Shown here: positions 1 to 13,196 of the stretch, piece after piece
How the letters are laid out: every line of letters starts with the position of its first letter
Numbering within the stretch: position 1 is the first letter of the stretch
Notes under the pieces: generated by a model
What the model was told of the DNA's origin: nothing
Seen by the model: only the letters and a program-made list of their open reading frames with translations
Database searches by the model: none
Made by a program: the position numbers and the translations under genes
DNA from: Polyangiaceae bacterium
GTDB lineage: Bacteria > Myxococcota_A > Polyangia > Polyangiales > Polyangiaceae
Direction: 5' to 3'
DNA: 64,000 bases
NCBI GenBank assembly: GCA_019637295.1
Contig: JAHBVX010000011.1
Span: 17,735 to 81,734, forward strand

Positions 1-45
1 GGATTGCGCGCCGGTCCGCCCGGAAGTGTGCTACCGGACGCGCCC

Positions 46-1485
46 ATGCCGGGTCCGCGCGTCCGCTTTGCCCCGTCGCCCAGCGGCTACCTCCACATCG
101 GTGGCGCGCGCACGGCGCTGTTCAACTGGCTCTGGGCCAGGAGCCAGGGGGGCACCTTCGTGCTGCGCATCGAGGACTCGGACCAAGAGCGCTCCAGCCT
201 CGACTCGGTGCGCGCGATCCTGGACGCCATGCGCTGGCTGGGGCTCGACTGGGACGAGGGGCCCGAGGTGGGCGGAGGCTCGGGTCCCTATTTTCAGAGC
301 GAGCGCAAGGCGCGCTATCGCGAAGCGGCCGACACGCTGATCCGCTCGGGCCACGCCTTCCGCTGCTACTGCACCAAGGACGAGCTGGACCGAGCCCGCG
401 CCGACCTCAAGGCGCGGGATCCCAAGGCCCAGTTCGTCTACCCGGGCACTTGCCGGGACCGCCAGGGCGAGCCTGACCTGCCGTTCGTGGTGCGATTCCG
501 CGCTCCTCGCAGCGGCGCCACGGAGTTCGTCGACAAGGTGTTCGGCCCCGTCAGCACCCCGAACGACGTCCAGCAAGACTTCGTGATCGTGCGCAGTGAC
601 GGCTTCCCGCTCTACAACCTGGGCTGCGTGGTGGATGACCACGACATGGGCATCACCCTGGTGGCCCGCGGGCGAGACCACATCGGCAACACGCCCCAGC
701 AGGTCCTCCTGTACCAAGCCTTCGGCTGGAGCGTGCCCGAGCTGGCCCACCTGCCCATGATGCTCTCGCCGAAGGGCGAGAAGCTGAGCAAGCGTCACGC
801 CTCGGTCAGCGTCTCGGACTATCGGCAGCGGGGTTACACACCGATGGGCGTGCTCAACTATCTGGTGCGTTTCGGCTGGTCCCACGGGGATCAGGAGATC
901 TTCACTCGAGACGAGCTGGTGCGGCTCTTTTCCTGGGAGCGAGTGAACAAGAGCGACGGCAAGTTCGACGAGAAGAAGTTCGCGGACGTGGCCTTCGAGC
1001 AGCTCAAGCAGCCGCGCCTCATGCCGGACGACGAGTATCGTGCCGCGGTTCGCCCGTTCCTGGGCGAGCGTGGGCTCGACCCGGTGGACGACGAGCGCCT
1101 CGCGCGGGCGCTGCCTACCATCCGGGAGCGCGCCCACACGCTGGTCGAGGCCGCCCACGCGCTCGACTACTACTTCCGTGACCCACCCGAGCTCGACGAG
1201 GCCGCCCGGAGCAAGTGCCTGACCCCTCAGGCCGCCCCCCACCTGCAGGCTGTCGCCGAGTGGCTAGCGGCGGTGGAGCCCTTCGACGTGCCGACCCTCG
1301 ACGCGGGCTTCGCCGCCCTCGTCAAGCAGCGCGGGCTCGAGATGAAGCACGTGGCTCAGCCCGTCCGAGTCGCGCTCACCGGTCGCACCGCCAGCCCGCC
1401 CCTGTTCGAGGTGGCAGCGGTGCTCGGACGCCAATCGACCGTAGACCGCCTGCTTCGCGCCGCGGAGATCGCCCGCTCGGGCTAG
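46..1485 (+). CDS. gltX: glutamate--tRNA ligase
   Basis: ORF 4..1485. It has the class I aaRS HIGH motif (PSPSGYLHIGGART) and a KMSKS-type KLSKR, and looks GluRS-like along its whole length. I prefer the ATG at 46 over the in-frame TTG at 4. Confidence 0.93.
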   Translation: MPGPRVRFAPSPSGYLHIGGARTALFNWLWARSQGGTFVLRIEDSDQERSSLDSVRAILDAMRWLGLDWDEGPEVGGGSGPYFQSERKARYREAADTLIRSGHAFRCYCTKDELDRARADLKARDPKAQFVYPGTCRDRQGEPDLPFVVRFRAPRSGATEFVDKVFGPVSTPNDVQQDFVIVRSDGFPLYNLGCVVDDHDMGITLVARGRDHIGNTPQQVLLYQAFGWSVPELAHLPMMLSPKGEKLSKRHASVSVSDYRQRGYTPMGVLNYLVRFGWSHGDQEIFTRDELVRLFSWERVNKSDGKFDEKKFADVAFEQLKQPRLMPDDEYRAAVRPFLGERGLDPVDDERLARALPTIRERAHTLVEAAHALDYYFRDPPELDEAARSKCLTPQAAPHLQAVAEWLAAVEPFDVPTLDAGFAALVKQRGLEMKHVAQPVRVALTGRTASPPLFEVAAVLGRQSTVDRLLRAAEIARSG

Positions 1486-1497
1486 CCACCAGCCGCC

Positions 1498-2472
1498 ATG
1501 GACACGTGGACGTGGGCGAGCGCGCCGGAGCTTCTGCTCCCGCTGATGCGCCTGAAGAGCATCTCCTGGTTCGACTCCCTGCTCGGCTATCCGCCAATCA
1601 AGGCGCTGCTCCCGATCCCGATCCTGCTGGCGCTCGCGCCCGCCGTGTACTGGTTCTTCAAGGACACTTGGCGGGAGCTGGACCGGGAGGCGGCGGCCGC
1701 CCGGGCCGCGCGGGCCGACAGCGGCGAGCTCGATCTTCGGCCGGCGGCCTGCCTGACGATCGTGGCCGTGGTGCTCACTCTGCAGGAGTACTACGGGGGC
1801 CGGCAGTTCTACGACACCACCCTGAGGCCCTGGCTGGTAGAGCTGGATCGCGGGGGCGCGACGTGGCTGAAGCTCGATCGCTACGACGAGCTGTACGGCT
1901 ACAGCTGGTGGGCCTTCTCCCGCGCCCTCGGCTACGTGCTGGTGCCCCTGCCGCTGTGGAAGCTGATGTTTCCGAAGGACAGCCTGCTGGACATGGGCTT
2001 CCGGTTCAAAGGCCTGCTCAGCCACTTGTGGATCTACGGGCTGTGCCTGGCCGTCGTGGTCCCGGCGATGCTGATCGTCGCCTCCCAGCCGGACTTCGGC
2101 GGCTACTACCCGTTCTACAAGAACAGCTCGCGCAGCTGGTTCGATCTCATTTCCTGGGAAGTCGTGTACTTCATTCAGTTTTTGACACTGGAGATGTTCT
2201 TCCGGGGTTGGATGGTCGGCGCCCTGCGCAAGAGCCTCGGCTCGGGAGCCATCTTCGCCATGGCCGTTCCCTACTGCATGATCCACTACGGCAAGCCGTA
2301 CCTCGAGGCTCACGGCGCCATCGTCGCCGGCGTCGTGCTCGGCTCCCTCGCCATGAGGACCCGCAGCATCTACTCCGGCTTCCTGGTCCACATCACAGTC
2401 GCGCTGCTGATGGATCTGCTCGCCCTCTGGAAGCGGGACGCCCTGCCCACGACGTTTTGGGCGGCGAGCTGA
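1498..2472 (+). CDS. CPBP-family (CAAX/Abi-type) intramembrane protease, polytopic membrane protein
   Basis: 324-aa ORF with its ATG 12 nt after the gltX stop. It has several hydrophobic helices. CPBP-like motifs are LEMFFRGW (ExxxR with only one Glu), YCMIHYG (FxxxH-like) and FLVHITVALLMD (third His motif). Confidence 0.7.
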   Translation: MDTWTWASAPELLLPLMRLKSISWFDSLLGYPPIKALLPIPILLALAPAVYWFFKDTWRELDREAAAARAARADSGELDLRPAACLTIVAVVLTLQEYYGGRQFYDTTLRPWLVELDRGGATWLKLDRYDELYGYSWWAFSRALGYVLVPLPLWKLMFPKDSLLDMGFRFKGLLSHLWIYGLCLAVVVPAMLIVASQPDFGGYYPFYKNSSRSWFDLISWEVVYFIQFLTLEMFFRGWMVGALRKSLGSGAIFAMAVPYCMIHYGKPYLEAHGAIVAGVVLGSLAMRTRSIYSGFLVHITVALLMDLLALWKRDALPTTFWAAS

Positions 2473-2551
2473 AGTTTTTTCTCCGTTTCCCAGGCCGCGC
2501 GCGCTATTTCAGCGCCAGCCTTCGTCCCGGTGACCGAAAAAGGAGCGAGCG

Positions 2552-4474
2552 TTGAACGACTCGAACGACAGCGAACCGCTGTGGTCCGTCCAGAGGAGCG
2601 TGCAGCTCTACCAGATCAGCGGCTGGGGTGATCCGTACTTCACGGTCAACCTCGACGGCCAGGTCGTGGTGCGACCGGATCCGACCCGAGACACCACCGT
2701 CAACTTGTACGACCTCACGCAGGGGCTCAAGGATCGCGGTCTGGACTTGCCGCTGCTGATTCGCTTCTCCGACATCGTGGGCCACCGCATCCGCTGTCTG
2801 AACGAGGCGTTCCAGCAGGCGATCAAGGAGCATGACTACGCCGGCACCTACCGCGGCGTGTTTCCGGTCAAGGTCAATCAGCAGCGTCACCTCGTCGAGT
2901 CCATCGTGGAGGCCGGCCGGCCCTGGCAGTACGGGCTCGAGGCGGGCTCCAAGCCCGAGCTCTTGATCGCGCTCGCGGCGATGCAAGACGTCGGCGGCCT
3001 GATCATCTGCAACGGCTACAAGGATCAGCACTACATCGAGACCGCGCTCGTCGCGCAGAAGTTCGACAAGACGGTGATCGTGGTGCTCGAGCGCGCGGAC
3101 GAGCTCGACACGGTGCTGCGGGCCAGCGAGAAGCTCGGCATCAAGCCGATGCTCGGCGTACGCGCCAAGCTCACCGCCAAGGGCGTGGGGCGCTGGGCGG
3201 ACTCGGCCGGAGACCGCGCCAAGTTCGGACTATCCACCAGCGAGATGGTGGAGCTCGTGGATCGCCTGGCCGAGTGCGACATGCTCGACTCCCTGGTGCT
3301 GCTGCACTTCCACATCGGCAGCCAGATCTCGAGCATCATCCCGCTGAAGAACGCCATCCAAGAGGCCGCGAACATTTACGTGGAGCTGGCCAAGATGGGC
3401 TGCCGCATGGGCTACCTGGACGTGGGCGGGGGACTCGCCATCGACTATGACGGCTCCAAGACCGACTTCCACGCCTCCAAGAACTACGGCCTGCACGAGT
3501 ACGCCGCAGACATCGTCTCGCACGTACACGCGGCGTGCACCAAGTCCGACGTCGCCGTGCCCACGCTCGTGAGCGAGAGTGGGCGCGCGGTCGCTGCTCA
3601 CCACTCGGTGTTGGTCTTCGAGGTGGTGGGCACGAGCGAGGTGCGCTTCGGCGTGCCCCAGGAGCCTCCGCCCGAGGCGCATCGCCTGCTGAAGGACATG
3701 TTCGAGACCTACAAGGGCATCAGCAGCAAGAACGTGCAGGAGTCGTGGCACGACGCGAGCCAGGCCAAAGAGGAAGCGCAGAACCTCTTCAAGTACGGTT
3801 ACCTGGGGTTGCGCGAGCGCGCGCAGGCCGAGCGGCTGTTCTGGGCCTGCTGCGAGAAGATCCAGGAGCGGCTGCGCAAGCTCAAGTTCGTCCCCGAGGA
3901 GCTGTGGCACCTCGAGCAGACGCTGTCGGCCATCTACTACTGCAACTTCAGTCTGTTCCAGTCCGCCCCCGACATCTGGGCCATCGACCAGCTCTTCCCC
4001 ATCATCCCCATTCATCGCCTGACCGAGGAGCCGACGGTCACCGCGCGGCTGGCGGATCTGACCTGCGACAGTGACGGTATCATCGACCGCTTCATCGACG
4101 TCGAGGACGACAAGCACGTGCTCGAGGTCCACGAGTGGAAGAGGGGTGAGCGCTATTACCTAGGGATGTTCCTGAACGGCGCGTATCAGGAGATCCTCGG
4201 GGACTTGCACAACCTGTTCGGCGACACCAACGCGGTGCACCTGCGCCTGACGGACGACGACAACTACGAGGTGCGCCACGTCATCAAGGGTGACAGCATC
4301 GCCGAGGTCCTGCGCTACGTGGAGTACATCCCCGAAGACATGATCGAGGCGGTGCGACGCCAAGCGGAACGCGCGGTGTCCAGCGGGCGGCTGACCAACG
4401 AGCAGATGCGCACCATGATGGCCCACTACGAGTCCGCACTCCGGAGCTACACGTATCTGACCGAGAGCGAGTGA
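2552..4474 (+). CDS. speA: biosynthetic arginine decarboxylase
   Basis: 640-aa ORF with a SpeA-type sequence (YRGVFPVKVNQQRHLVESIV, HFHIGSQI, GYLDVGGGLAIDYDG). The TTG start at 2552 follows a strong AAAGGAG Shine-Dalgarno at a 6-nt spacer. Confidence 0.92.
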   Translation: MNDSNDSEPLWSVQRSVQLYQISGWGDPYFTVNLDGQVVVRPDPTRDTTVNLYDLTQGLKDRGLDLPLLIRFSDIVGHRIRCLNEAFQQAIKEHDYAGTYRGVFPVKVNQQRHLVESIVEAGRPWQYGLEAGSKPELLIALAAMQDVGGLIICNGYKDQHYIETALVAQKFDKTVIVVLERADELDTVLRASEKLGIKPMLGVRAKLTAKGVGRWADSAGDRAKFGLSTSEMVELVDRLAECDMLDSLVLLHFHIGSQISSIIPLKNAIQEAANIYVELAKMGCRMGYLDVGGGLAIDYDGSKTDFHASKNYGLHEYAADIVSHVHAACTKSDVAVPTLVSESGRAVAAHHSVLVFEVVGTSEVRFGVPQEPPPEAHRLLKDMFETYKGISSKNVQESWHDASQAKEEAQNLFKYGYLGLRERAQAERLFWACCEKIQERLRKLKFVPEELWHLEQTLSAIYYCNFSLFQSAPDIWAIDQLFPIIPIHRLTEEPTVTARLADLTCDSDGIIDRFIDVEDDKHVLEVHEWKRGERYYLGMFLNGAYQEILGDLHNLFGDTNAVHLRLTDDDNYEVRHVIKGDSIAEVLRYVEYIPEDMIEAVRRQAERAVSSGRLTNEQMRTMMAHYESALRSYTYLTESE

Positions 4475-4538
4475 GGGGCGCGTCTTCGGTGTTGGCCCGG
4501 CGCGGGAGCGACAGCGGTCCGCAGCCCGGGTGGGGGCG

Positions 4539-5978
4539 TCACTCCACGACGAACTCGACTCGCCGATTCTTGGACCGCGCCTCGTCGCTCGTGTCCTTCA
4601 CCAGTGGGCGGTCCGGTCCGTAGCCCTCGGCGCTCAGGCGGTTGGGCGCCACGCGGCCACGGTCGATCAAGTACTGACGGACGGCCTGCGCGCGCTGGCG
4701 AGAGAGCCTGCGGTTGACCTCCTTCGGGCCGGTATCGTCCGTGTGGCCTTCGACTCGTACCTTCACGTCCGCGTTGGCCTTGATCATCAGGGCCACCTGG
4801 TCGAGCAGCGAGTGGGACTCTTCCTTGATCTCGGCTTTGCCGTGCTCGAACGTGACCGCGTCCAGGATCTTGAACTGGCCATCTTCGTAGATCACGCGGG
4901 GATCGCCGCTGTCTGGGCAGCCGTCGTGGTCGTCCACGCCGTTGATGGTCTCCTTGGCATCCGGGCACAGATCGTAGCGATCCGGTACCCCGTCCCCGTC
5001 GCTGTCCAGGTCCTCCTCGGGGCAGCCGTCGGTGTCTCGGTCGCCGTCGCGGTCCTCGGGCACATCAGGACACTGGTCTTCGTCGTCGGGAATGCCATCG
5101 TTGTCGCGGTCATGGGCCGTGGGCCTGAAGCGTACGCCCGCGAACACACGGAAGGTGGGGACGCCGTAGCCCGGGATCAAGCCGACACCAGGGCCCGCGG
5201 TGAGCTCCCACTCGGGGGTCGGAGCGTGGCGCAGATAAGCGAAGCCCTCGAGCGGTAGCTCTTCCGCATCGCTCGAACGCAGGCCCACCCCGCCGTTGAG
5301 CTCCAAGCCGATCTCGGTGTTGCCGGTGATCCCCCCGAAGCGATAGCCGACCGCTGCTGCGTACGCCAGCTCGCTCCCGGCCTGGACGTTGCCAAAGTCC
5401 GCGTCTTCTCGGAACAGCACGCCGAGGTTGAAGCCGACGCGGATCCCGTTGATGAAGCGGTGGTCGAGGATGGCCTTGGGCAAGAGCTCGAAGCCGTCTC
5501 CCGTCCCGGAGAAGTCTCCGGTGTGCGTGGGAACGCGCACCTCCGCGGCCAAGGCGAGGCCAACGCTCTCCCGATCGTCGAGTAGTCGCAGCTTGGGTAC
5601 GACCCGCAGCTTGCCCAGTCCGGTGCTCGATGGATCCGCGTCCCCGCTCTGGAGCACGAACGCGGGCAGTCCGACGCCGATCGCCAAGGGACCGGTGAGC
5701 GTCACGGAGCCGAGGACGTCGACGCCCAGGCGACCGCCGACGAAGCTCGCGACGTAGTCGCCCGAACCGTCGACGACGACGAGGGGTCGGTAGGCGTAGT
5801 TGAGGAACAGCCCGAGCTCGAGCGGGTCCTGGCCGGGCCGCACCGCCGAGCCTTCTGCGTTCACGAACCCGTCGTGCGTGACGGCGGGCTGAAAACGTTC
5901 GGCGCTGACTTGCGCCATGGCGGGCGCGGAGAGCCCGAACAGCGATAGGAACAGGAGCGTCGCGTTGATGGGGCGCAT
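4539..5978 (-). CDS. OmpA-family outer-membrane protein with thrombospondin type-3-like Ca-binding repeats (TraB-like architecture)
   Basis: Signal peptide MRPINATLLFLSLFGLSAPAMAQ, followed by a beta-rich N-terminal half. Asp-rich repeats DRDNDGIPDDEDQCPDVPEDRDGDRDTDGCPEEDLDSDGDGVPDRYDLCPD come next. The C-terminal OmpA domain reads VRVEGHTDDTGPKEVNRRLSRQRAQAV...NRRVEFVV. Its start lies 16 nt downstream of the stop of the preceding gene. Confidence 0.88.
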   Translation of the reverse strand: MRPINATLLFLSLFGLSAPAMAQVSAERFQPAVTHDGFVNAEGSAVRPGQDPLELGLFLNYAYRPLVVVDGSGDYVASFVGGRLGVDVLGSVTLTGPLAIGVGLPAFVLQSGDADPSSTGLGKLRVVPKLRLLDDRESVGLALAAEVRVPTHTGDFSGTGDGFELLPKAILDHRFINGIRVGFNLGVLFREDADFGNVQAGSELAYAAAVGYRFGGITGNTEIGLELNGGVGLRSSDAEELPLEGFAYLRHAPTPEWELTAGPGVGLIPGYGVPTFRVFAGVRFRPTAHDRDNDGIPDDEDQCPDVPEDRDGDRDTDGCPEEDLDSDGDGVPDRYDLCPDAKETINGVDDHDGCPDSGDPRVIYEDGQFKILDAVTFEHGKAEIKEESHSLLDQVALMIKANADVKVRVEGHTDDTGPKEVNRRLSRQRAQAVRQYLIDRGRVAPNRLSAEGYGPDRPLVKDTSDEARSKNRRVEFVVE

Positions 5979-5994
5979 GGATCCTCGACCAGGT

Positions 5995-6116
5995 TCAGCG
6001 ACGGCGCGCGCGAGTGCGGCGACGCACCACGAGCGCCAGCCCCAACGCGACCATCAGCCCGAGGTGGCGGGCGGGTAGCCACGGAGCCTGCGCCGCACGG
6101 CAGGCGCACGCGCCTC
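5995..6116 (-). other. MYXO-CTERM-type C-terminal sorting tag (tag 1 of 5 in window)
   Basis: GGACACRAAQAPWLPARHLGLMVALGLALVVRRRTRARRR-stop. This is a Gly/Cys motif, a hydrophobic helix and an Arg cluster. Confidence 0.8.
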
Positions 6117-7194
6117 CCTGGATCTCGTCCTCGGGCCCGAGCGAGAGCCCGGCGCTGCCGGCGCTGCCGGTGCTGCCAATACAGCGGCCGTCGGGTCCAC
6201 AGCGCCGGCCAGCGCCGCACGAATCGTCGCTGTCGCAGTTGGCGCACTGTCCGCCGGCGCAGTAGCGCGTGGCGCAGTCGGCGCCTTCACTACAGGTGCC
6301 GCTCGGCACCAGCAGGCAGCGCCCCTCGCTGCAACGATGCCCGCTCGGGCAATCCGTGTCCAAGGCGCATGGCGGCGTCAGCACGCACTTGCCAGAGACG
6401 CATCGGCCGCCGTTCGGACACTGGGCATCACTGGAGCACGAGCCTGGTGGAACCGACAGGTCCGGTATCCCGTCCTTGTTCGAGTCGGCGGGAACGCACG
6501 GGCCAACCGTGCCCACCTCGAGATCCCCAGCGCCGAGGGCAGCGGTCTCGTTCGTGGTACGAAAGTACAGGTTGACGTCGCACGCCGGCGTGACCCCGAC
6601 TTGGGAAAGCGTCACCGAGAGCTGGATGTACCCGTGCGCATCCTCGCCAACCCGGATGGGGTCGAGGTGACTGCCGCTCTCGCCGCCGATCTGCGCCGGC
6701 GGCACGTTGACCGTCTGGAATCCGCCGGCCTGCCATGCCCACACGTTGGAGATGGAGCCATTGCCGCGGGCCGCGAGCACGTACTCGTAGCCCCCGTTGG
6801 AGGCGTCGGCGACGAACCGTGCGTCGATGTCCGTGGCCGCGGCGCTGCCGCCGGTCGAGGGGTTACGGTCGTTGTCGAGGAACACGTACGCCGTCACGTT
6901 GCCACCGGGACCGTTGGTGTCCGAGACGTACACGCGGGCCCAGAAGCGCGCGTTGTCAGCCATGGCGTAGGCGGTACGTATGTCGATCGCGCGTTCGGGG
7001 GGATTGAACTCGGCGAGGCCGTCGCCGGCGACGTCCTCCGCGCCCCAGGGCCAGCCTGGCTCCCCGGTCTTGTCGATGGCGACGAGCTCGGCCAGCGACG
7101 GCCCCTGCCGCCCCGGGCCCCAGGTCTGCCCCGAGGCCGGCGCGACTGCCAGGAGCAGCGTCGCAGCCGCGTACTTCGTGATCCCGAACCGCAT
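5995..7194 (-). CDS. secreted surface protein: N-terminal beta-rich domain, Cys-rich repeats, MYXO-CTERM tag (TraA-like architecture)
   Basis: Signal peptide MRFGITKYAAATLLLAVAPASGQ, then an uncharacterised domain of about 230 aa. Repeated C-x-x-D-x-x-C-P-x-G-x-x-C-x-x-G-x-C units follow (SSDAQCPNGGRCVSGKC, LDTDCPSGHRCSEGRC, EGADCATRYCAGGQC, DSDDSCGAGRRCGPDGRC). The C-terminus is GGACACRAAQ, a hydrophobic helix, then RRRTRARRR. Confidence 0.85.
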   Translation of the reverse strand: MRFGITKYAAATLLLAVAPASGQTWGPGRQGPSLAELVAIDKTGEPGWPWGAEDVAGDGLAEFNPPERAIDIRTAYAMADNARFWARVYVSDTNGPGGNVTAYVFLDNDRNPSTGGSAAATDIDARFVADASNGGYEYVLAARGNGSISNVWAWQAGGFQTVNVPPAQIGGESGSHLDPIRVGEDAHGYIQLSVTLSQVGVTPACDVNLYFRTTNETAALGAGDLEVGTVGPCVPADSNKDGIPDLSVPPGSCSSDAQCPNGGRCVSGKCVLTPPCALDTDCPSGHRCSEGRCLLVPSGTCSEGADCATRYCAGGQCANCDSDDSCGAGRRCGPDGRCIGSTGSAGSAGLSLGPEDEIQGGACACRAAQAPWLPARHLGLMVALGLALVVRRRTRARRR

Positions 7195-7324
7195 GCGGCG
7201 TCAGTGGCGTCTAGTCTGGCTCGTTATGACGGTCGGTCGAAAGCCGCCGCATCCCTCAGGCGTTTGCTGGACGTGGCCCGGACAAGCCCGTACGATCATC
7301 TACCGGGCTCTGGTCCCCCGTCCG

Positions 7325-7951
7325 ATGGTTCGCCGCTTCGCTCTCCGTCTGCTCGTCCCCGCTGGGGTCCTGGCGCTCATGAGCCAGAGCTCTACCGGTC
7401 GGGCCGACATCTACAAGACCGTGGACGCGGACGGCGTCATTTCCTTCACGAGCGCGCCCAAGGGCAAGGGAAGTGTGCTCGTCGCCAAGGGTCAGAAGAA
7501 GGACAAGCTGCCCGCGTTCATGCCCCAAGACACGTCCCCGGAGCGCTTCACGCGCTACGACGTGCACATCCGGCAGGCGGCCACGCTCTACCAGATACCC
7601 GAGGAGCTGGTGCGTGCCGTCATCAAGGTCGAGAGCGACTTCGACCCGCGCGCGGTGTCGAAGGCCAACGCGCGTGGGTTGATGCAGATGATCCCGGCCA
7701 CGGCGGAGCGCATGATGGTGACGGACGTGTTCGACCCAAGGCAGAACGTGTTCGGCGGCGTGCGCTATCTGCGCGTGCTCGCGAACTTGTTCAACGGCGA
7801 TCTCGAGCTGACGATCGCCGCCTACAACGCGGGTGAGGGTGCCGTCATGCGGCACGGCGGCATCCCACCCTACGAAGAGACACGCATGTACGTGGCCAAG
7901 GTGCTGACGTACTACCGGCACTACCGCGCGGTGAGCCTGACGGCTCGCTGA
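7325..7951 (+). CDS. lytic transglycosylase (DUF4124-like N-terminus plus SLT domain)
   Basis: In-frame ATG at 7325 within ORF 6980..7951 gives the signal-like MVRRFALRLLVPAGVLALMS. Next come IYKTVDADGVISFTS and the SLT catalytic region VIKVESDFDPRAVSKANARGLMQMIP...AAYNAGEGAV. Confidence 0.87.
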   Translation: MVRRFALRLLVPAGVLALMSQSSTGRADIYKTVDADGVISFTSAPKGKGSVLVAKGQKKDKLPAFMPQDTSPERFTRYDVHIRQAATLYQIPEELVRAVIKVESDFDPRAVSKANARGLMQMIPATAERMMVTDVFDPRQNVFGGVRYLRVLANLFNGDLELTIAAYNAGEGAVMRHGGIPPYEETRMYVAKVLTYYRHYRAVSLTAR

Positions 7952-7964
7952 GCGGCCTGGCGCG

Positions 7965-9014
7965 CTACCTCTTCGCCGGCGTGCGGGAGCGCCTCTTGGC
8001 GTAGCCCGCCAGGGCCTGCTCGAGTTCGTGCTGGACCCGCTCGACGAGCTCCGGCGGCTCGATGACCCGCGCCCGCGCTCCCCACTCGAGCACCCAGCTC
8101 GCGACGGGGTTGAGGTTGCCCACCGTCATCGTCAAGCGCACGCCGCCGCCGGCCACGGACGCCAGCTTCTGGGTCGCGTGCACCTTCCGCATGCGTACGT
8201 ACTCGGCGGCCTGGGCGTCGAAATCCACCACCACCTTGCGCTTCTTCTCGCTCTTCCACACCCCGAGCTCGCCCTGGAAGTACTCGCCCACGTCGAAGCT
8301 GGCGGGGAGCTCGAACCGCTCGGTGACGGAGCACTCGGTGTCGCGCATGCGGTCGAGGACGAACGTGCGGACTTCGCCCCGGGCGACGTGGTGACCGACG
8401 CAATAGATGGCATCCCGATGCAGCACCATCGCGTAGGGATGGAGCGTGATCCGCTCCTCCTGGGCGCGGCTGCTGCTGCGGTACGAGAGGGTGAGCGGGC
8501 GCAGATCGCTCACGGCCTGGAACAGGTCGTCGAGCTCCTCGGTCTTGTCGCCGTAGTTCTTGGGCGCGAAGGGCAGGTACAAGAAGCGGTCCTCGAGCCT
8601 GGCGTCCGCGAGCCCCGCGTTCGGCCCGCGGCCCGGGCGCTGCGCGAACGCGAGCAGCTTCTTGGTGGCCAGGTCGATCTCGTCGAACAGCGCCGAGCCT
8701 CGCATGGGCTCGAACAGCCGCCGAGCGGCGAGGATGGCATAGGCCTGGGTGCGCCTCAGCTCGACCTTGCGCGGGATCTCGCTCGCGCGGATGCGCCAGA
8801 GCAGCGCCCCGCCAGCGCGGGAGGGGGAGCTCTCGAGGTCCAGCTCCCGCTCCACCTCTTTGAGGTAGCGCCGCATCGTCCGGGGGCTGACCGAGATCGC
8901 GTCGGCCAGCTCGTACAGGGACACGCCCCTGGGGTGCTTGGTGAGCAGCTCGCGCAGTCGATCCAGGCGACGATGCTGCGTGAACCGACCTCGGGGCCGC
9001 CCAACCTTGGCCAT
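7965..9014 (-). CDS. WYL-domain transcriptional regulator (HTH + WYL + WCX, YafY/PafBC-like)
   Basis: Only the last 349 codons of the 1487-aa ORF 7965..12428 look real, starting at ATG 9014 (MAKVGRPRG...). HTH: VSLYELADAISVSPRTMRRYLKEVE. WYL core: ITLHPYAMVLHRDAIYCVGHHVARGEVRTFVLDRM. C-terminal WCX-like segment: VASWVLEWGARARVIEPPELVERV. Confidence 0.87.
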   Translation of the reverse strand: MAKVGRPRGRFTQHRRLDRLRELLTKHPRGVSLYELADAISVSPRTMRRYLKEVERELDLESSPSRAGGALLWRIRASEIPRKVELRRTQAYAILAARRLFEPMRGSALFDEIDLATKKLLAFAQRPGRGPNAGLADARLEDRFLYLPFAPKNYGDKTEELDDLFQAVSDLRPLTLSYRSSSRAQEERITLHPYAMVLHRDAIYCVGHHVARGEVRTFVLDRMRDTECSVTERFELPASFDVGEYFQGELGVWKSEKKRKVVVDFDAQAAEYVRMRKVHATQKLASVAGGGVRLTMTVGNLNPVASWVLEWGARARVIEPPELVERVQHELEQALAGYAKRRSRTPAKR

Positions 9015-9209
9015 CAGACGACTCGCTACGGTCGATCCCCGGCCCGAGTCAAGTCGGTGGGGCTCGGTGGCAAGGGCAGGCCCCCGAAGCTCCTTGAGGG
9101 CGCCCCGGTGGAGGTGTAGTCTTGATGGCGTGTGTGCTCGGGCCACCTTCCCTCGCGGACGGCTGGACGCCCACATGTGCGTGACGGCGGTCGCGCGGGA
9201 GCCTAGCCA
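9015..9209. promoter_or_regulatory. divergent intergenic region between the WYL regulator and the giant surface-protein cassette (presumed promoters/operator)
   Basis: 195-nt non-coding gap between two divergently oriented starts (9014 minus, 9210 plus). A GGGAG Shine-Dalgarno-like element sits about 9 nt before ATG 9210. No promoter hexamers could be assigned confidently. Confidence 0.35.
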
Positions 9210-12200
9210 ATGAACGAGAACCCATTCCTTCTCAGCCGGCTCGCAGCGCGTGCGGGCGCCGCAGCGTTGGTTGGTCTTGCCGCTCTTGCGGTAGCGGCGC
9301 GCCCCGCCTTGGCCCAGCCCTACGACTGCAACTCGCCCAACCCCGCGATGTGGCCGCCCCCGGCCAAGCCCTACTTCATGGTCGTGGTGGACACCTCGGG
9401 GAGCATGGCGGCGTGTACCAACCCACAGACGGCCTGGCCCCAGACCTGCGCGGACGTCGGCGGTGGCGTCAACAACTCGTGCGGCTGGCAGCCCTTGCGG
9501 GTGAACGACGCCAAGTGCGCGCTGCGGAACACCCTCTGGGCCTTCGCGGGCGAGGCGAACTTCGGGTTGGCGTCCTTCTCTCGCACCCTCACGGGCTGCC
9601 CCTCCGCGTGCAACTGGGGCCAGGTCTGGAACAGCACCTTCTGGTATCGCTACGCCTACAACGGCTGCGGCTTCGGGGGCACCGCCTGCGGCGGCGCCAA
9701 CATGCTGGTCGGCATGCAGCTGGATGCGACGCCGACGCCGCCCAGCAACGTCCCCTCCATGGTCGAGTACATGGATCACAACTGCGGCGACAACAAGGAG
9801 CTGTTCGCCTACGACGCCACGCCCATCGGCGCGTCGCTGCAGAACGTTCGGACCTATTTCCAGAGCGGGCTCCCCGGCTTCCCGTCGCCCCTCAACGCCC
9901 AAGATCCCGCCTGCCGCTCCCTGAACGTCATCCTGATGACGGACGGCGGCGAGACCTGCAGCGGTGACCCGGTCACCGCGGCTCAGCAGCTCTACACCGG
10001 CTTCACCAAGGACGGGATCTTCAGGCGCATTTACACTCACGTCATCGCCTTCAACGTGGATGCTCCAGCGGATCAAACCCTGCTGAACAACGTGCACAAG
10101 ATGGGCCAGTGCGGGACCACGACCGGGGCCTGCGCGAACGCCGTGAGCGCCATTCAGGCCAGCGACGAGGTGTCTCTGTCGCAGGCCTTCGCCACGATCA
10201 TCTCCGGCGCGGTGAAGCCGGAGACCTGCAACAACGCGGACGACAACTGCAACGGCTGCATCGACGAGGGCTACGCGCGGTACTGCAACGTGAAGCCCGC
10301 AGGGCAGTGCTGTACGTGGGGCAACCCGACGCAGCGCAACACCTGCCTGACGAACTACCAGAACTCGATCACGCCGAGCAACCCGCAGGGGAACGTGGCG
10401 CTCTTGCCGTGCACGACGGTGGCGCAGTCGCAGAACCCGGCGACGTGGCTGTGCTTCAACCCGGGCGAGCTGTGCGACGACGCGGACAACAACTGCAACG
10501 GGCAGACGGACGAGACCTTCAACAAGTGCGGCAACCCGCTGAAGTGCCCCGGTCCGGAGCTGTGCAACGGCGAGGACGACGACTGCGACGGCATCATCGA
10601 CAACGCGGCGGGCAGCGGCGTCCCCTACAGCGCGTGTCCCAACCAGTGCCAGCCGAGCGCGGAGATCTGCGACGGCTGCGACAACAACTGCAACGGGATC
10701 GCGGACGACGGGGTGGCGGACATCCCGTGCGGCTTCTCGCCGCCGGGCAACTGCGCGGGCGTGCGCACGTGCGTGAGCAAGGGGGTGGCGGTGCCGGTGG
10801 GCGGGTGCGTCGGGCCAACCGCGCCGAAGGGCTTCGGAGCGTGCTCGAACACGCCGCAGCCGGAGATCTGCGACGGGCTGGACAACAACTGTAACGGCAC
10901 GGTGGACGAGGGGATCGCGCCTGGGGCGTGCGAGATCCCTGGTCAGCCCGGGCTGAAGTACCAGGAAGACGGCTTCCCGCTGAGCCAGTGCAAGAAGGGG
11001 ATCTTGCCGTGCAACGGGACGTGCAGCGGTTGGACGGGACCGAGCGCGGAGATTTGCGACGGCATCGACAACGACTGCGACGGGATCGTGGACAACAACA
11101 TCCCGGGTCTGGGTCAGGAGTGCGGGCTGGCGACGGGCCAGTGCAGCAAGGGTCAGACGGCGTGCGTGGGCGGAGTGATCGTGTGCCAGGGCGGGACGCA
11201 GCCGCAGCCGGAGATCTGCGACGGCCTGGACAACGACTGCGACGGGACGACGGACAACGCGCCGATGGTGGACCAGCCGAGCAACCCGGGTTGCTGGAGC
11301 CTGCCGGCGACGGGGTGCAGTCCGACCTGCAGCCACCAGAACGTGTCGTGGTGTCCGCCGGCGGGCGGGACGTGCACGGGGACGGGTACGCTGAGCACGC
11401 CGTGCCAGACGGGTACGCTGGTGTGCGACGGAGCAAACCAGTGGAAGTGCCAGGGCGGAGTGGTGCCGACGGCGGAGGTGTGCGACGGGGTGGACAACAA
11501 CTGCAACAGCCAGGTGGACGAGAGCCTGGGCGCGCCGGTGGGCCAGTCCTGCGGGTCGAGCGTTGGGGAGTGCTCTCCGGGCGTGAACGTGTGCGTGAGC
11601 GGAGTGATCCAGTGCCAGGGCGGGCAAGGTCCGACGCCGGAGGTGTGTGACGGACTGGACAACGACTGCGATGGCGACATCGACAACGGCATCCCGCTGG
11701 GTGGGGCGTGCACGCCGGTGTACGACACGAACCTGTACCCCGGGGATCGGACGAAGGGCGTGTGCAAGCCGGGGGTGCTGGCGTGCGACGGGCAGGGCGG
11801 GACGGTGTGCGTTGGCGGCGTGGGCCCGAGCGCGGAGATCTGCGACGGAGTGGACAACGACTGCGACGGCCAGGTGGACGAGCCCGGGCCTGCCCCGGAC
11901 GGGATCAACGGGACGGAGGACCCGCTGCAGCCCGGGGTGAAGATCGGGGACGCTTGCGGGACGAGCGTTGGGGAGTGCAAGCCCGGGCAGTACGCCTGCG
12001 CGGGCGGGAAGTTCGTGTGCCTGGGCGGAGTGGGTCCGAACCCCGAGGTGTGCGACTGCCTGGACAACGACTGCGACGGCCAGGTGGACAACGAGCCGGC
12101 GGCGGGTTCGCTGTGCAGCACGGGCAAGACGTGTGTGGCGGTGGCTGGAGGGAACTGCCAGTGCGCGGAGCCGTGCGCGGGCGGAGAGTTCCCGTGCCCG

Positions 12201-13196
12201 ACGAGCTTCGAGTGCAAGAACGTGACGAAGAGCGGGACGGGTCAGGCCCTCGGTGACTACTGCGTGAACGACGGCTGCGGGGACTGCACGACGAAGACGG
12301 TGAAGGACCAGCAGACGGGGGTGACGCTGTGTGGTCCGGAGGGAACGGCGGGCAGCAAGCCCGAGTGCGTGTGCAAGGCGAACAAGTGCCAGCACCCGTG
12401 CGCGAACATCCAGTGCCCGACGGGTCAAGAGTGCGCGCTGCAGGGGTCGAGCGCTGGGACGTGCCAGCCGACGGGCAACTGCTTCTTCTTCGGCTGCGAC
12501 GCGGGCGAGGTGTGCAACGGCGGGGTGTGCGTGGCCGACCCGTGCACGCCGAACCCGTGCCAGGCGGACGAGGTGTGCAAGCCGAACGCGACCTTCAGCG
12601 AGCCACGCTGCGTGGGGTCGTGCGCGAGCGTGACGTGTCCGACTGGGCAGCAGTGCGTGGAGGGACAGTGCGAGGAGACGGGCTGCGCGCAGGGCTGCGC
12701 GCCGGGCGAGGTGTGCCAGCCCACGGGTGATGGCGGCTACGCTTGCGGCCCGAACCAGTGCGCGACGGACGCGGGTCAGCCGTGCAGCAACGGCGCGTGG
12801 TGCAACCCGGCGACGGGCGCGTGCGGCAACGAGCCCTGCGAGGGTGTGGTTTGCCCGGTCGCGCAGCTGTGCGCCGAGGGTCAGTGCATCTGGGCGCCCG
12901 AGGGCGGCGCGGGCACCGGCGGCAGCGGCACCGGCGGCAGCGGCACCGGCGGCAGCGGCACCGGCGGCGCCGGACCGGACGCGGGCCTGGGCGGCGGAAG
13001 TGGCGGAAACATCAGCGTTCCGACCACCGACCCCGAGCGCGGGGTCTGGGGCCTGGCCACCGGCGGCGGCGGCTGCGCCTGCCGCGCGGCCGGGACCGAC
13101 CGGCGCACGCCGCTCGGCGCGGCCTTGGCATTCGGCGCTCTGGCGGTCGCTCTTGGCTTCCGCCGGCGACGCCGAGGTGCTCTTCTAGGAGGCTGA
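9210..13196 (+). CDS. giant secreted surface protein, paralog A: VWA/MIDAS-like head, 11 CDGxDNDCDGxxDE metal-binding-type repeats, Cys-rich EGF-like stalk, (GTGGS)n linker, MYXO-CTERM
   Basis: 1328 aa with signal peptide ...LAALAVAARPALAQ. The head carries PYFMVVVDTSGSM (a DxSGS MIDAS motif) and NVILMTDGGETCSGD. The repeats include EICDGIDNDCDGIVDN and EVCDGLDNDCDGDIDNG. The C-terminus is GGGGCACRAAG...ALAVALGFRRRRRG. Confidence 0.9.
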   Translation: MNENPFLLSRLAARAGAAALVGLAALAVAARPALAQPYDCNSPNPAMWPPPAKPYFMVVVDTSGSMAACTNPQTAWPQTCADVGGGVNNSCGWQPLRVNDAKCALRNTLWAFAGEANFGLASFSRTLTGCPSACNWGQVWNSTFWYRYAYNGCGFGGTACGGANMLVGMQLDATPTPPSNVPSMVEYMDHNCGDNKELFAYDATPIGASLQNVRTYFQSGLPGFPSPLNAQDPACRSLNVILMTDGGETCSGDPVTAAQQLYTGFTKDGIFRRIYTHVIAFNVDAPADQTLLNNVHKMGQCGTTTGACANAVSAIQASDEVSLSQAFATIISGAVKPETCNNADDNCNGCIDEGYARYCNVKPAGQCCTWGNPTQRNTCLTNYQNSITPSNPQGNVALLPCTTVAQSQNPATWLCFNPGELCDDADNNCNGQTDETFNKCGNPLKCPGPELCNGEDDDCDGIIDNAAGSGVPYSACPNQCQPSAEICDGCDNNCNGIADDGVADIPCGFSPPGNCAGVRTCVSKGVAVPVGGCVGPTAPKGFGACSNTPQPEICDGLDNNCNGTVDEGIAPGACEIPGQPGLKYQEDGFPLSQCKKGILPCNGTCSGWTGPSAEICDGIDNDCDGIVDNNIPGLGQECGLATGQCSKGQTACVGGVIVCQGGTQPQPEICDGLDNDCDGTTDNAPMVDQPSNPGCWSLPATGCSPTCSHQNVSWCPPAGGTCTGTGTLSTPCQTGTLVCDGANQWKCQGGVVPTAEVCDGVDNNCNSQVDESLGAPVGQSCGSSVGECSPGVNVCVSGVIQCQGGQGPTPEVCDGLDNDCDGDIDNGIPLGGACTPVYDTNLYPGDRTKGVCKPGVLACDGQGGTVCVGGVGPSAEICDGVDNDCDGQVDEPGPAPDGINGTEDPLQPGVKIGDACGTSVGECKPGQYACAGGKFVCLGGVGPNPEVCDCLDNDCDGQVDNEPAAGSLCSTGKTCVAVAGGNCQCAEPCAGGEFPCPTSFECKNVTKSGTGQALGDYCVNDGCGDCTTKTVKDQQTGVTLCGPEGTAGSKPECVCKANKCQHPCANIQCPTGQECALQGSSAGTCQPTGNCFFFGCDAGEVCNGGVCVADPCTPNPCQADEVCKPNATFSEPRCVGSCASVTCPTGQQCVEGQCEETGCAQGCAPGEVCQPTGDGGYACGPNQCATDAGQPCSNGAWCNPATGACGNEPCEGVVCPVAQLCAEGQCIWAPEGGAGTGGSGTGGSGTGGSGTGGAGPDAGLGGGSGGNISVPTTDPERGVWGLATGGGGCACRAAGTDRRTPLGAALAFGALAVALGFRRRRRGALLGG
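10207..13177 (+). repeat. direct repeat copy 1 (about 2.97 kb, near-identical to 14367..17337)
   Basis: Line-by-line comparison at a constant 4160-nt offset. I saw substitutions only at 10226, 10268, 10271, 10314, 10466, 10637, 10640, 10644, 10646 and 13160. Alternate-frame ORFs in the track are identical between copies (for example 11153..12217 versus 15313..16377). Confidence 0.95.
12912..12968 (+). repeat. in-frame 15-nt tandem repeat ggcaccggcggcagc (about 3.8 units) encoding a (GTGGS)n linker
   Basis: Read directly: ggcaccggcggcagc x3, then ggcaccggcggcgcc. It translates to GTGGSGTGGSGTGGSGTGGA. Confidence 0.9.
13062..13196 (+). other. MYXO-CTERM-type sorting tag (tag 2 of 5)
   Basis: GGGGCACRAAGTDRRTPLGAALAFGALAVALGFRRRRRGALLGG-stop. 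Confidence 0.8.

Follow-up and report, generated by a model that had tools for sequence, protein, structure and literature searches.

Fusion of outer membranes and kin-selective sharing are, to our knowledge, known from a single bacterial machinery, the TraAB proteins of myxobacteria. In Myxococcus xanthus they are encoded by a two-gene operon (MXAN_6895/MXAN_6898; NCBIfam families NF033759 and NF033763), in which the gene for the stalk protein TraA comes first and the gene for TraB, with its beta-barrel and OmpA domain, comes second. We have analyzed a gene pair, here called A and B, that is laid out in the same way in a 64,000-nucleotide (nt) stretch of contig JAHBVX010000011.1 from a Polyangiaceae bacterium; the whole of this stretch is referred to as the window. 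The host is an uncultured Polyangia myxobacterium. Our comparison, which is computational throughout, leads us to conclude with moderate confidence that A-B is a two-component cell-surface module paralogous to TraAB and confined to the Polyangia, a sister system rather than an allele of TraAB.

Several published features of TraAB and of related proteins provide the basis for this comparison. TraA is about 700 amino acids (aa) long, with a PA14-like variable domain as its head and more than 10 repeats in its stalk. TraA and TraB occur in a 1:1 stoichiometry, the published model places the end of the TraA stalk on the TraB barrel, and the OmpA domain is needed for function (PMC12045341). The SCNCCP motif of repeat C5, which lies within an essential repeat, is invariant in all 90 TraA orthologues (PMC6372800). 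The tripartite layout of the MYXO-CTERM sorting tag (a motif with an invariant Cys, a transmembrane helix and an Arg-rich end) was defined, and the processing of the tag described, in PMC11980579. That work also described MXAN_5598 of M. xanthus, in which an adhesin region, an internal MYXO-CTERM, an outer-membrane barrel and an OmpA domain form what resembles a fusion of TraA and TraB. Orthologues of traAB have been reported in all three former suborders of the myxobacteria; in 22 TraA alleles of Sorangium cellulosum the variable domain is polymorphic and the architecture is the normal one but for the missing repeats C2 and C3, and no exchange was detectable with S. cellulosum traAB (PMC6372800).

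The open reading frames (ORFs) of A and B and the gap of 16 nt between them, as given in an initial annotation made from the sequence, are borne out, and the features of both genes are collected in Table 1. The window has a G+C content of about 65-73%. As that annotation had remarked, the order A then B is the order of traAB. Myxococcus traAB loci, which we retrieved as controls by an exact-match scan of a genome collection with a published traB primer (PMC3325183, Table S3), have the same order and are likewise tightly coupled; in M. vastator (L016) traA spans 1689-3833 and traB starts at 3830, an overlap of 4 nt. The M. vastator proteins scored 1146.6 bits against NF033759, 313 bits against TIGR04566 and 1023.5 bits against NF033763, and these high scores qualify the three models as valid positive-control models for TraA and TraB. 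Myxococcus-type traA and traB were also seen at ~420-4120 of L002 (BNCN01000005.1, 'Comamonas sp. KCTC 72670') and at 1-2264 of L011 (JAFAAN010000061.1, 'Proteobacteria bacterium OH_PFB_83'); their products are 81-92% identical to those of M. vastator, so that either the organism labels look wrong or the assemblies are contaminated. Within the 64-kb window, tblastn with TraA and TraB found no second tra-like locus. A scan of positions 4300-7500 gave no promoters and a single terminator-like site, which is at chance level.

On sequence comparison, B is a full-length homologue of the TraB family and not a generic OmpA porin. The alignment of B to TraB that had been proposed as a check runs from end to end: BLASTP matched residues 1-479 of B to residues 1-504 of Myxococcus TraB through the barrel, the thrombospondin type 3 (TSP3) region and the OmpA domain, with 30% identity and an expected value (E) of 1.4e-50. 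Profiles built from 41 B-family and 41 TraB-family sequences aligned over 460 columns in hhalign (probability 100%, E 4.7e-67). Among NCBIfam families, TraB (NF033763) is the best match of B, with 171.4 bits (E 1.8e-50), followed by a generic OmpA lipoprotein model with 110.9 bits, and when the barrel was searched by itself (residues 1-276) TraB was the sole match (E 3e-17, profile positions 47-277). The beta-rich N-terminal half, the TSP3-like Asp repeats and the OmpA domain that had been proposed for B were all recovered, behind a putative signal peptide. The OmpA domain scored 80.5 bits against PF00691 (E 1.2e-22), well above the gathering score of 27.2, and contains the GHTD and NxxLSxxRAxxV motifs. 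PF02412 matched the Asp-rich linker in two stretches, below its cutoff (E 1.5e-3); DxDxDG..D..C motifs are visible there and the linker aligns with the TSP3 region of TraB. The score of B against NF033763 is far below the cutoff of 700 bits, which the control TraB exceeds, and B lacks both the Pro-rich linker and the Lys/Pro-rich C-terminal extension of TraB; we therefore place it in a paralogous family and not in TraB itself. A search with Myxococcus TraB returned only Cystobacterineae TraB orthologues among the best 120 matches listed. An assignment of B to the outer-membrane proteins of gliding motility (Glt) was considered and rejected, as no such NCBIfam model matched it.

Protein A shares with TraA a signal peptide, TIGR04201 repeats and a tail consisting of QGGAxC, a helix and an Arg-rich end. 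Judging from the alignments, its stalk and sorting tail are homologous to those of TraA. With BLASTP the match to TraA is limited to the repeats (E 3e-5). Between profiles, stalk and tail both align (hhalign probability 97%, E 1.8e-11), and this alignment takes in PGxExQGGAxC and the helix/Arg end, the two tails matching column for column. The Cys-rich repeat family TIGR04201 is the sole NCBIfam match of A and was found in two stretches with 26.2 bits, above its cutoff of 25. We found 137 homologues of A, all of about 400 aa, at 40-97% identity. In the family alignment, conservation begins at Q23-T24-W25, directly after an AxA-type site (family consensus AxAQTW); all 16 cysteines of the stalk are invariant or nearly so; and G360, G361, A362 and C365, which form the Gly-Gly-Ala-x-x-Cys core of the tail, are invariant. 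A Gly/Ser spacer separates the repeats from the tail. The signal-peptide-like start, the beta-rich head and the Cys-rich repeats read initially in A were thus all found again. Stalks in the family range from 4 to about 10 repeats with the head kept throughout. Five members (P0091, P0033, P0241, P0271 and P0288) carry the same head on longer stalks and reach 500-584 aa with up to ~45 Cys; stalk length is therefore variable.

The two genes are found together wherever we examined them. A is followed by B in 10 of 10 loci, namely the window, the Sorangium chromosomes L001, L025 and L026, the metagenomic loci L019, L020/L021, L022, L023 and L024, and the JGI contig Cv4CMQpg. The complete Sorangium genomes CP012670.1, CP150328.1 and CP150316.1 are among the carriers of the pair. 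In the loci other than the window the genes overlap by 4 nt or are separated by 11-19 nt, and the flanking genes differ from locus to locus. In addition, at least 18 matches to A and matches to B sit on contigs of equal size. The initial annotation had named a pair not conserved in relatives as evidence against its proposal; here the pair recurs among unrelated flanks. All named hosts of the matches are Sorangium, Polyangiaceae, or unclassified 'Myxococcales' or 'Deltaproteobacteria'. In one case (P0267, 888 aa) A and B form one polypeptide, with the sorting tail internal and the signal-peptide region of B following it. This may be a natural fusion like MXAN_5598; alternatively, the stop codon may have been lost or the sequence may contain an error. 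The databases call B only 'OmpA family protein' and A 'hypothetical', names that would suit two unrelated neighbours brought together by coincidence, a generic OmpA-family porin and a secreted Cys-rich protein that do not work as partners. Such an accident is very improbable, given the adjacency in every locus amid changing flanks, the 4-nt overlaps in some of them, the specifically TraB-like barrel and the single ORF of P0267.

It is in the head that A departs from TraA. Protein A gave no match to NF033759 (exchanger_TraA, cutoff 750 bits) at E<=1, its head gave none to TIGR04566 (myxo_TraA_Nterm, a distant PA14) at E<=1, and the profile of the head aligned with that of the TraA N-terminus at a probability of only 0.2% in hhalign. 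No PA14 structure was among the 50 best Foldseek matches of the head, which agrees with the early impression that it does not obviously look like PA14. The Pfam PA14 model was dropped as a discriminator, since true TraA did not match it either. Protein A is also much shorter than TraA, as had been noted: it has 399 aa and 4 repeats where TraA has ~700 aa and more than 10. The SCNCCP motif is absent from 78 of 78 aligned members of the A family and occurs once in each of four Myxococcus TraA proteins.

These results bear on whether A-B could be a divergent traAB allele or orthologue, in other words a traAB locus whose recognition domain has been exchanged. The gene order, the coupling, the stalk, the tag and the partner family are indeed common to both, yet we regard this as exceedingly improbable. 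A has no match at E up to 1 to the two models against which true TraA scores 1147 and 313 bits, B reaches 171 bits where true TraB reaches 1023 and the cutoff is 700, and SCNCCP is missing. The published S. cellulosum TraA has the normal architecture, so the Sorangium orthologues of A differ from it (PMC3325183, PMC6372800). That S. cellulosum orthologue matches M. xanthus TraA with E<=1e-145 and covers at least 89% of it (PMC3325183). The Sorangium orthologues of A have ~405-425 aa and resemble TraA in the stalk only; they are therefore not the published Sorangium traA. In Sorangium, A-B appears to be a system additional to canonical traAB, the coexistence of the two being taken from the literature (PMC3325183, PMC6372800).

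The structure predicted for the head points in another direction. The AlphaFold2 model of full-length A, computed from an alignment of 78 sequences, had a predicted local distance difference test score (pLDDT) of 88 and a predicted template-modelling score (pTM) of 0.79, and consists of a beta-sandwich head, all-beta over residues ~37-232, followed by beta-hairpin repeats. A model of the head alone had a pLDDT of 82.7. Foldseek searches of the PDB with the full-length model gave only matches at noise level. With the head-only model, the best neighbours were carbohydrate-binding modules (CBMs) of families CBM9 and CBM74, at a probability of ~1.0 and E values from 1e-4 to 4e-3: the CBM9 structures 1i82 (E 1.1e-4, TM-score 0.36/0.43) and 7nwo (E 1.3e-3, TM-score 0.33/0.38), and the CBM74 of Sas6 in 7uwu, 7uww and 7uwv (E 7.4e-4 to 4e-3, TMq up to 0.50), with 7uww at E 1.1e-3 and TMq 0.50. 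Antibody and p53 sandwiches came next, at noise level. The head shares with 1i82, 7nwo, 7uww and 7uwv the beta-sandwich, and its acidic and aromatic invariants fit calcium or sugar binding, but the TM-scores are only 0.36-0.50, the identities 10-12%, and no Pfam CBM model matches. A further difference is that CBMs are normally appended to enzymes, whereas the head of A would be carried on a lipid-anchored stalk. Residues D41, E45, W48, E53, D54, E67, D71, R73, Y76, R87, Y89 and D107 of the head are invariant in the family, and the acidic and aromatic ones among them are compatible with a putative calcium or sugar site. A head folding as a known module unrelated to TraA had been named at the outset as a finding that would count against a TraA-type receptor; this is partly what we see, in that the sole structural neighbours are CBM9 and CBM74, and weak ones.

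Neither as a single sequence nor as a profile did the head match Pfam (E<=10), NCBIfam or PDB sequences. A search of 1.84 billion representatives with its profile found only 108 proteins, nearly all of them with the same architecture of ~400 aa or fragments of it. The head is thus an unannotated domain family of 108 representatives with no Pfam model. Five distant matches (P0330, P0336, P0340, P0339 and P0342) share the segment ND..LY.R...F.D.D.N..TG from the centre of the head, which is present in 1-3 copies in large secreted proteins with fn3/Ig-like domains or C-terminal membrane anchors. None of the five has a Pfam or PDB assignment, and together they suggest a wider, unclassified family of beta-sandwich domains.

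The nearest folds are those of a cellobiose-binding xylanase module (CBM9) and of CBM74, which binds starch. On this basis the head could hold a feeding cell to insoluble polysaccharides of plants or microbes, for instance cellulose or xylan, while B anchors it. Sorangium, a carrier of A-B, is cellulolytic. We consider such a role in substrate capture unlikely: the fold match is weak, and the surroundings of the pair in the 10 loci examined show no recurrent genes for glycoside hydrolases or polysaccharide utilisation.

The head of TraA is polymorphic; that of A is conserved. Over 78 family members, mean identity to the window A was 0.53 for the head; for the stalk it was 0.47, or 0.36 once the cysteines were left out. 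In pairwise comparisons within the family the head was mostly as conserved as the remainder of the protein or more so. Among four Myxococcus TraA alleles examined as a control, the N-terminal domain had diverged more than the rest in 5 of 6 pairs. Three Sorangium genomes share 72-81% identity in the head, 75-78% in the stalk, 86-89% in B and 75-83% in the adjoining M1 peptidase. Between the window A and its nearest relative, in L020, there are 10 substitutions (97.5% identity), and the ratio of nonsynonymous to synonymous substitution rates (dN/dS) in the head is ~0.20. There is no sign of a TraA-like diversification of A; its rate of change is slightly above that of its neighbours, which is common for surface proteins. 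The polymorphism among relatives for which the initial annotation had suggested looking was therefore not found: the head is conserved, with identity at least that of the stalk. The conserved head and the purifying selection on it make a general adhesin or receptor likelier than a polymorphic device for kin discrimination. Two alternatives had been left side by side initially. That of a distinct TraA recognition specificity does not hold, in view of a head with no detectable relation to the TraA variable domain, the missing SCNCCP and the lack of head polymorphism; that of a receptor family in its own right, sharing the plan of TraAB, is favoured by the homology of B to TraB, the shared stalk and tail and the unrelated head.

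The same observations apply to the idea that A-B is a second outer-membrane-exchange system, in which A heads on different cells would pair homotypically, with a species-wide in place of a kin-level specificity, and A-B would drive fusion as a fusogen. That B is a full-length TraB homologue, and that stalk, tag and operon plan are common to A-B and TraAB, fits with this, and S. cellulosum traAB, for which no exchange was detectable (PMC6372800), leaves room for another system in the Polyangia. However, the head bears no relation to the variable domain of TraA, the repeats of the stalk number only 4, and the distal TraA repeats and SCNCCP, which are essential for TraA (PMC6372800), are absent from A. 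A second fusogen thus seems improbable to us. A part for A-B in membrane exchange is possible, although nothing specific speaks for it.

Three observations weigh against our view of A-B as a TraAB-derived module with a lectin-like head. First, the head resembles CBMs only weakly (TM 0.36-0.50, E 1e-4 to 1e-3), and no sequence family backs the resemblance. Second, the tail of the window A gives no match to TIGR03901 (cutoff 20), although the tripartite layout of the MYXO-CTERM tag read in the initial annotation is present. This model is short and marginal even on true TraA, which scores 20.8 bits, while the tails of two A orthologues score 22.0 and 25.9 bits; in the tail of the window A, the Cys motif and the helix lie further apart. 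Third, A changes faster than B and than the neighbouring housekeeping gene: between the window and L020, A is 97.5% identical where B is 99.4% and arginine decarboxylase 99.8% identical, and, with only ~10 substitutions to judge by, some surface-driven diversification of A is conceivable.

With these points in mind, we consider that A is most likely a lipid-anchored, lectin-like adhesin that would dock on a cell-wall-anchored partner of the TraB type, B. By analogy with TraAB and with MYXO-CTERM biology (PMC11980579, PMC12045341), A would be an export substrate of Sec and would receive its lipid at the conserved Cys in the GGACAC motif. Its transmembrane tail would be removed by a CPBP protease of the myxosortase type, and a type II secretion system would carry A to the cell surface, where its membrane-proximal end might sit on the barrel of B in a 1:1 complex, as modelled for TraA and TraB, and the short, rigid stalk of four repeats would display the CBM9/CBM74-like head, which may bind a conserved ligand, probably a glycan on neighbouring cells, matrix or substrate. 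B would pass the load to the cell wall through its calcium-stiffened TSP3 linker and the anchoring of its OmpA domain to peptidoglycan. We favour the binding of a conserved ligand, as in general adhesion or contact sensing, over kin discrimination.

Two M. xanthus proteins offer partial parallels to such a module. MXAN_5598, which we liken to A-B by its description only, follows the same logic of a surface MYXO-CTERM protein joined to a barrel/OmpA anchor, and P0267 has the same layout in a single polypeptide; unlike A-B, MXAN_5598 is a fusion whose adhesin region is large, and it belongs to a cluster for cell division. MXAN_4924, a paralogue of TraA, is found on the surface and carries Cys-rich repeats together with a MYXO-CTERM tag that myxosortase processes, a plan like that proposed for A, but its head is of the PA14 type, the protein is close to TraA (E 4e-101, PMC3325183), and no TraB-type partner has been reported for it, whereas A has a dedicated one. 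Both A and B, unlike TraA and TraB, fall far below the NCBIfam cutoffs, and their family was found in the Polyangia only. The literature searched contained no account of the A-B family.

Table 1. Positions of the A-B gene pair, its parts and neighbouring features (coordinates of the window unless another sequence is named)
Feature	Position	Strand	Size or residues	Basis or remark
Gene A, secreted, Cys-rich, C-terminally tagged stalk protein; TraA-style plan, different head	5995..7194	-	399 aa	ORF and translation; ATG start
Putative signal peptide of A, MRFGITKYAAATLLLAVAPASG before QTW	7129..7194	-	residues 1-22	read from sequence
Head of A, conserved all-beta sandwich	6499..7128	-	residues 23-232	AlphaFold2, Foldseek, family alignment
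Stalk of A, four Cys-rich repeats C-x5-C-x5-C-x4-C	6175..6438	-	residues 253-340	TIGR04201, TraA alignment
MYXO-CTERM-type tail of A: IQGGACAC, hydrophobic helix, RRRTRARRR	5998..6123	-	residues 358-399	tripartite layout
A-B spacer	5979-5994	-	16 nt	GAGGA ribosome-binding motif at 5982-5986, just upstream of B start
Gene B, TraB-family outer-membrane protein	4539..5978	-	479 aa	ORF and translation, ATG start; BLASTP, hhalign, NF033763
N-terminal beta-barrel of B	5121..5912	-	residues ~23-286	PF13557 E 1.4e-7; TraB model
Asp-rich TSP3-like linker of B, predicted to bind calcium	4905..5120	-	residues 287-358	PF02412, TraB alignment
OmpA-like peptidoglycan-binding domain of B	4542..4904	-	residues 359-479	PF00691
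gltX	4-1485			
CPBP/Rce1-like intramembrane protease, candidate accessory	1498..2472	+	324 aa	NCBIfam; PF02517 in near-identical L020
Arginine decarboxylase gene	2552-4474			
Secreted SLT-domain lytic transglycosylase	~7325-7951	+		PF01464 in L020
ORF with putative metal-binding motifs	9210-13196	+	1328 aa	seven MopE-type motifs
ORF antisense to the preceding	7965-12428	-		real only in C-terminal part, ~7965-8970 (L020 gene 1273-2322)
Thioredoxin genes of one clade, L019	9176-9862, 751-1296			
Thioredoxin genes of the same clade, JGI contig Cv4CMQpg	8587-9306, 345-2420			

Some of the genes around the pair could be connected with its function. A CPBP protease is encoded two genes downstream of A, between gltX and the arginine decarboxylase gene. 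Its best NCBIfam match is the archaeomyxosortase MrtA, with 84 bits against a cutoff of 200, and MrtS and MrtJ matched more weakly; MrtC has been named for Chondromyces (PMC11980579). From its sequence it may be a Polyangia myxosortase that processes the tail of A, and we list it as a candidate. The gene order around it is the same in L020 and L021. In the other loci examined it is not near the pair, and the linkage is therefore probably incidental. The gene for a lytic transglycosylase, divergent from A in the window, is likewise not beside the pair in the other loci examined and is therefore also probably incidental. In one clade of the family, a gene for a DsbA-like thioredoxin directly follows B and one for a DsbH-like thioredoxin lies upstream; these genes fit a need to oxidise the 16-Cys stalk. 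The protease, the transglycosylase and the DsbA genes were each considered as part of the core module and rejected, as each lies near the pair in some lineages only. Further from A, the 1328-aa ORF overlaps an antisense ORF, whose real part encodes a WYL/WCX/HTH regulator. GC skew is strongly positive (0.16-0.22) over 10.5-13 kb of the window.

The comparison suggests names for some 140 gene pairs now listed as 'hypothetical' and 'OmpA family'. A-B is also a natural comparator for the mechanism of TraAB, as the TraB scaffold and the TraA chassis are kept while the head is swapped and the stalk shortened. It bears on which features of TraB serve generic anchoring and which are specific to fusion, on whether the identity of the head alone sets kin recognition as against general adhesion, and on the role of TraAB-type proteins in the Polyangia, where canonical traAB showed no exchange. 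Beyond this, and quite tentatively, TraAB may be one of a wider modular class of myxobacterial surface machines, in which a stalk protein stiffened by disulfides and anchored by a lipid stands on a TraB-type barrel/OmpA anchor and the choice of head sets the kind of contact, with A-B as a second, non-polymorphic contact system in the Polyangia. If so, the lectin-like head of A-B could serve contact between cells, or even the exchange of membrane.

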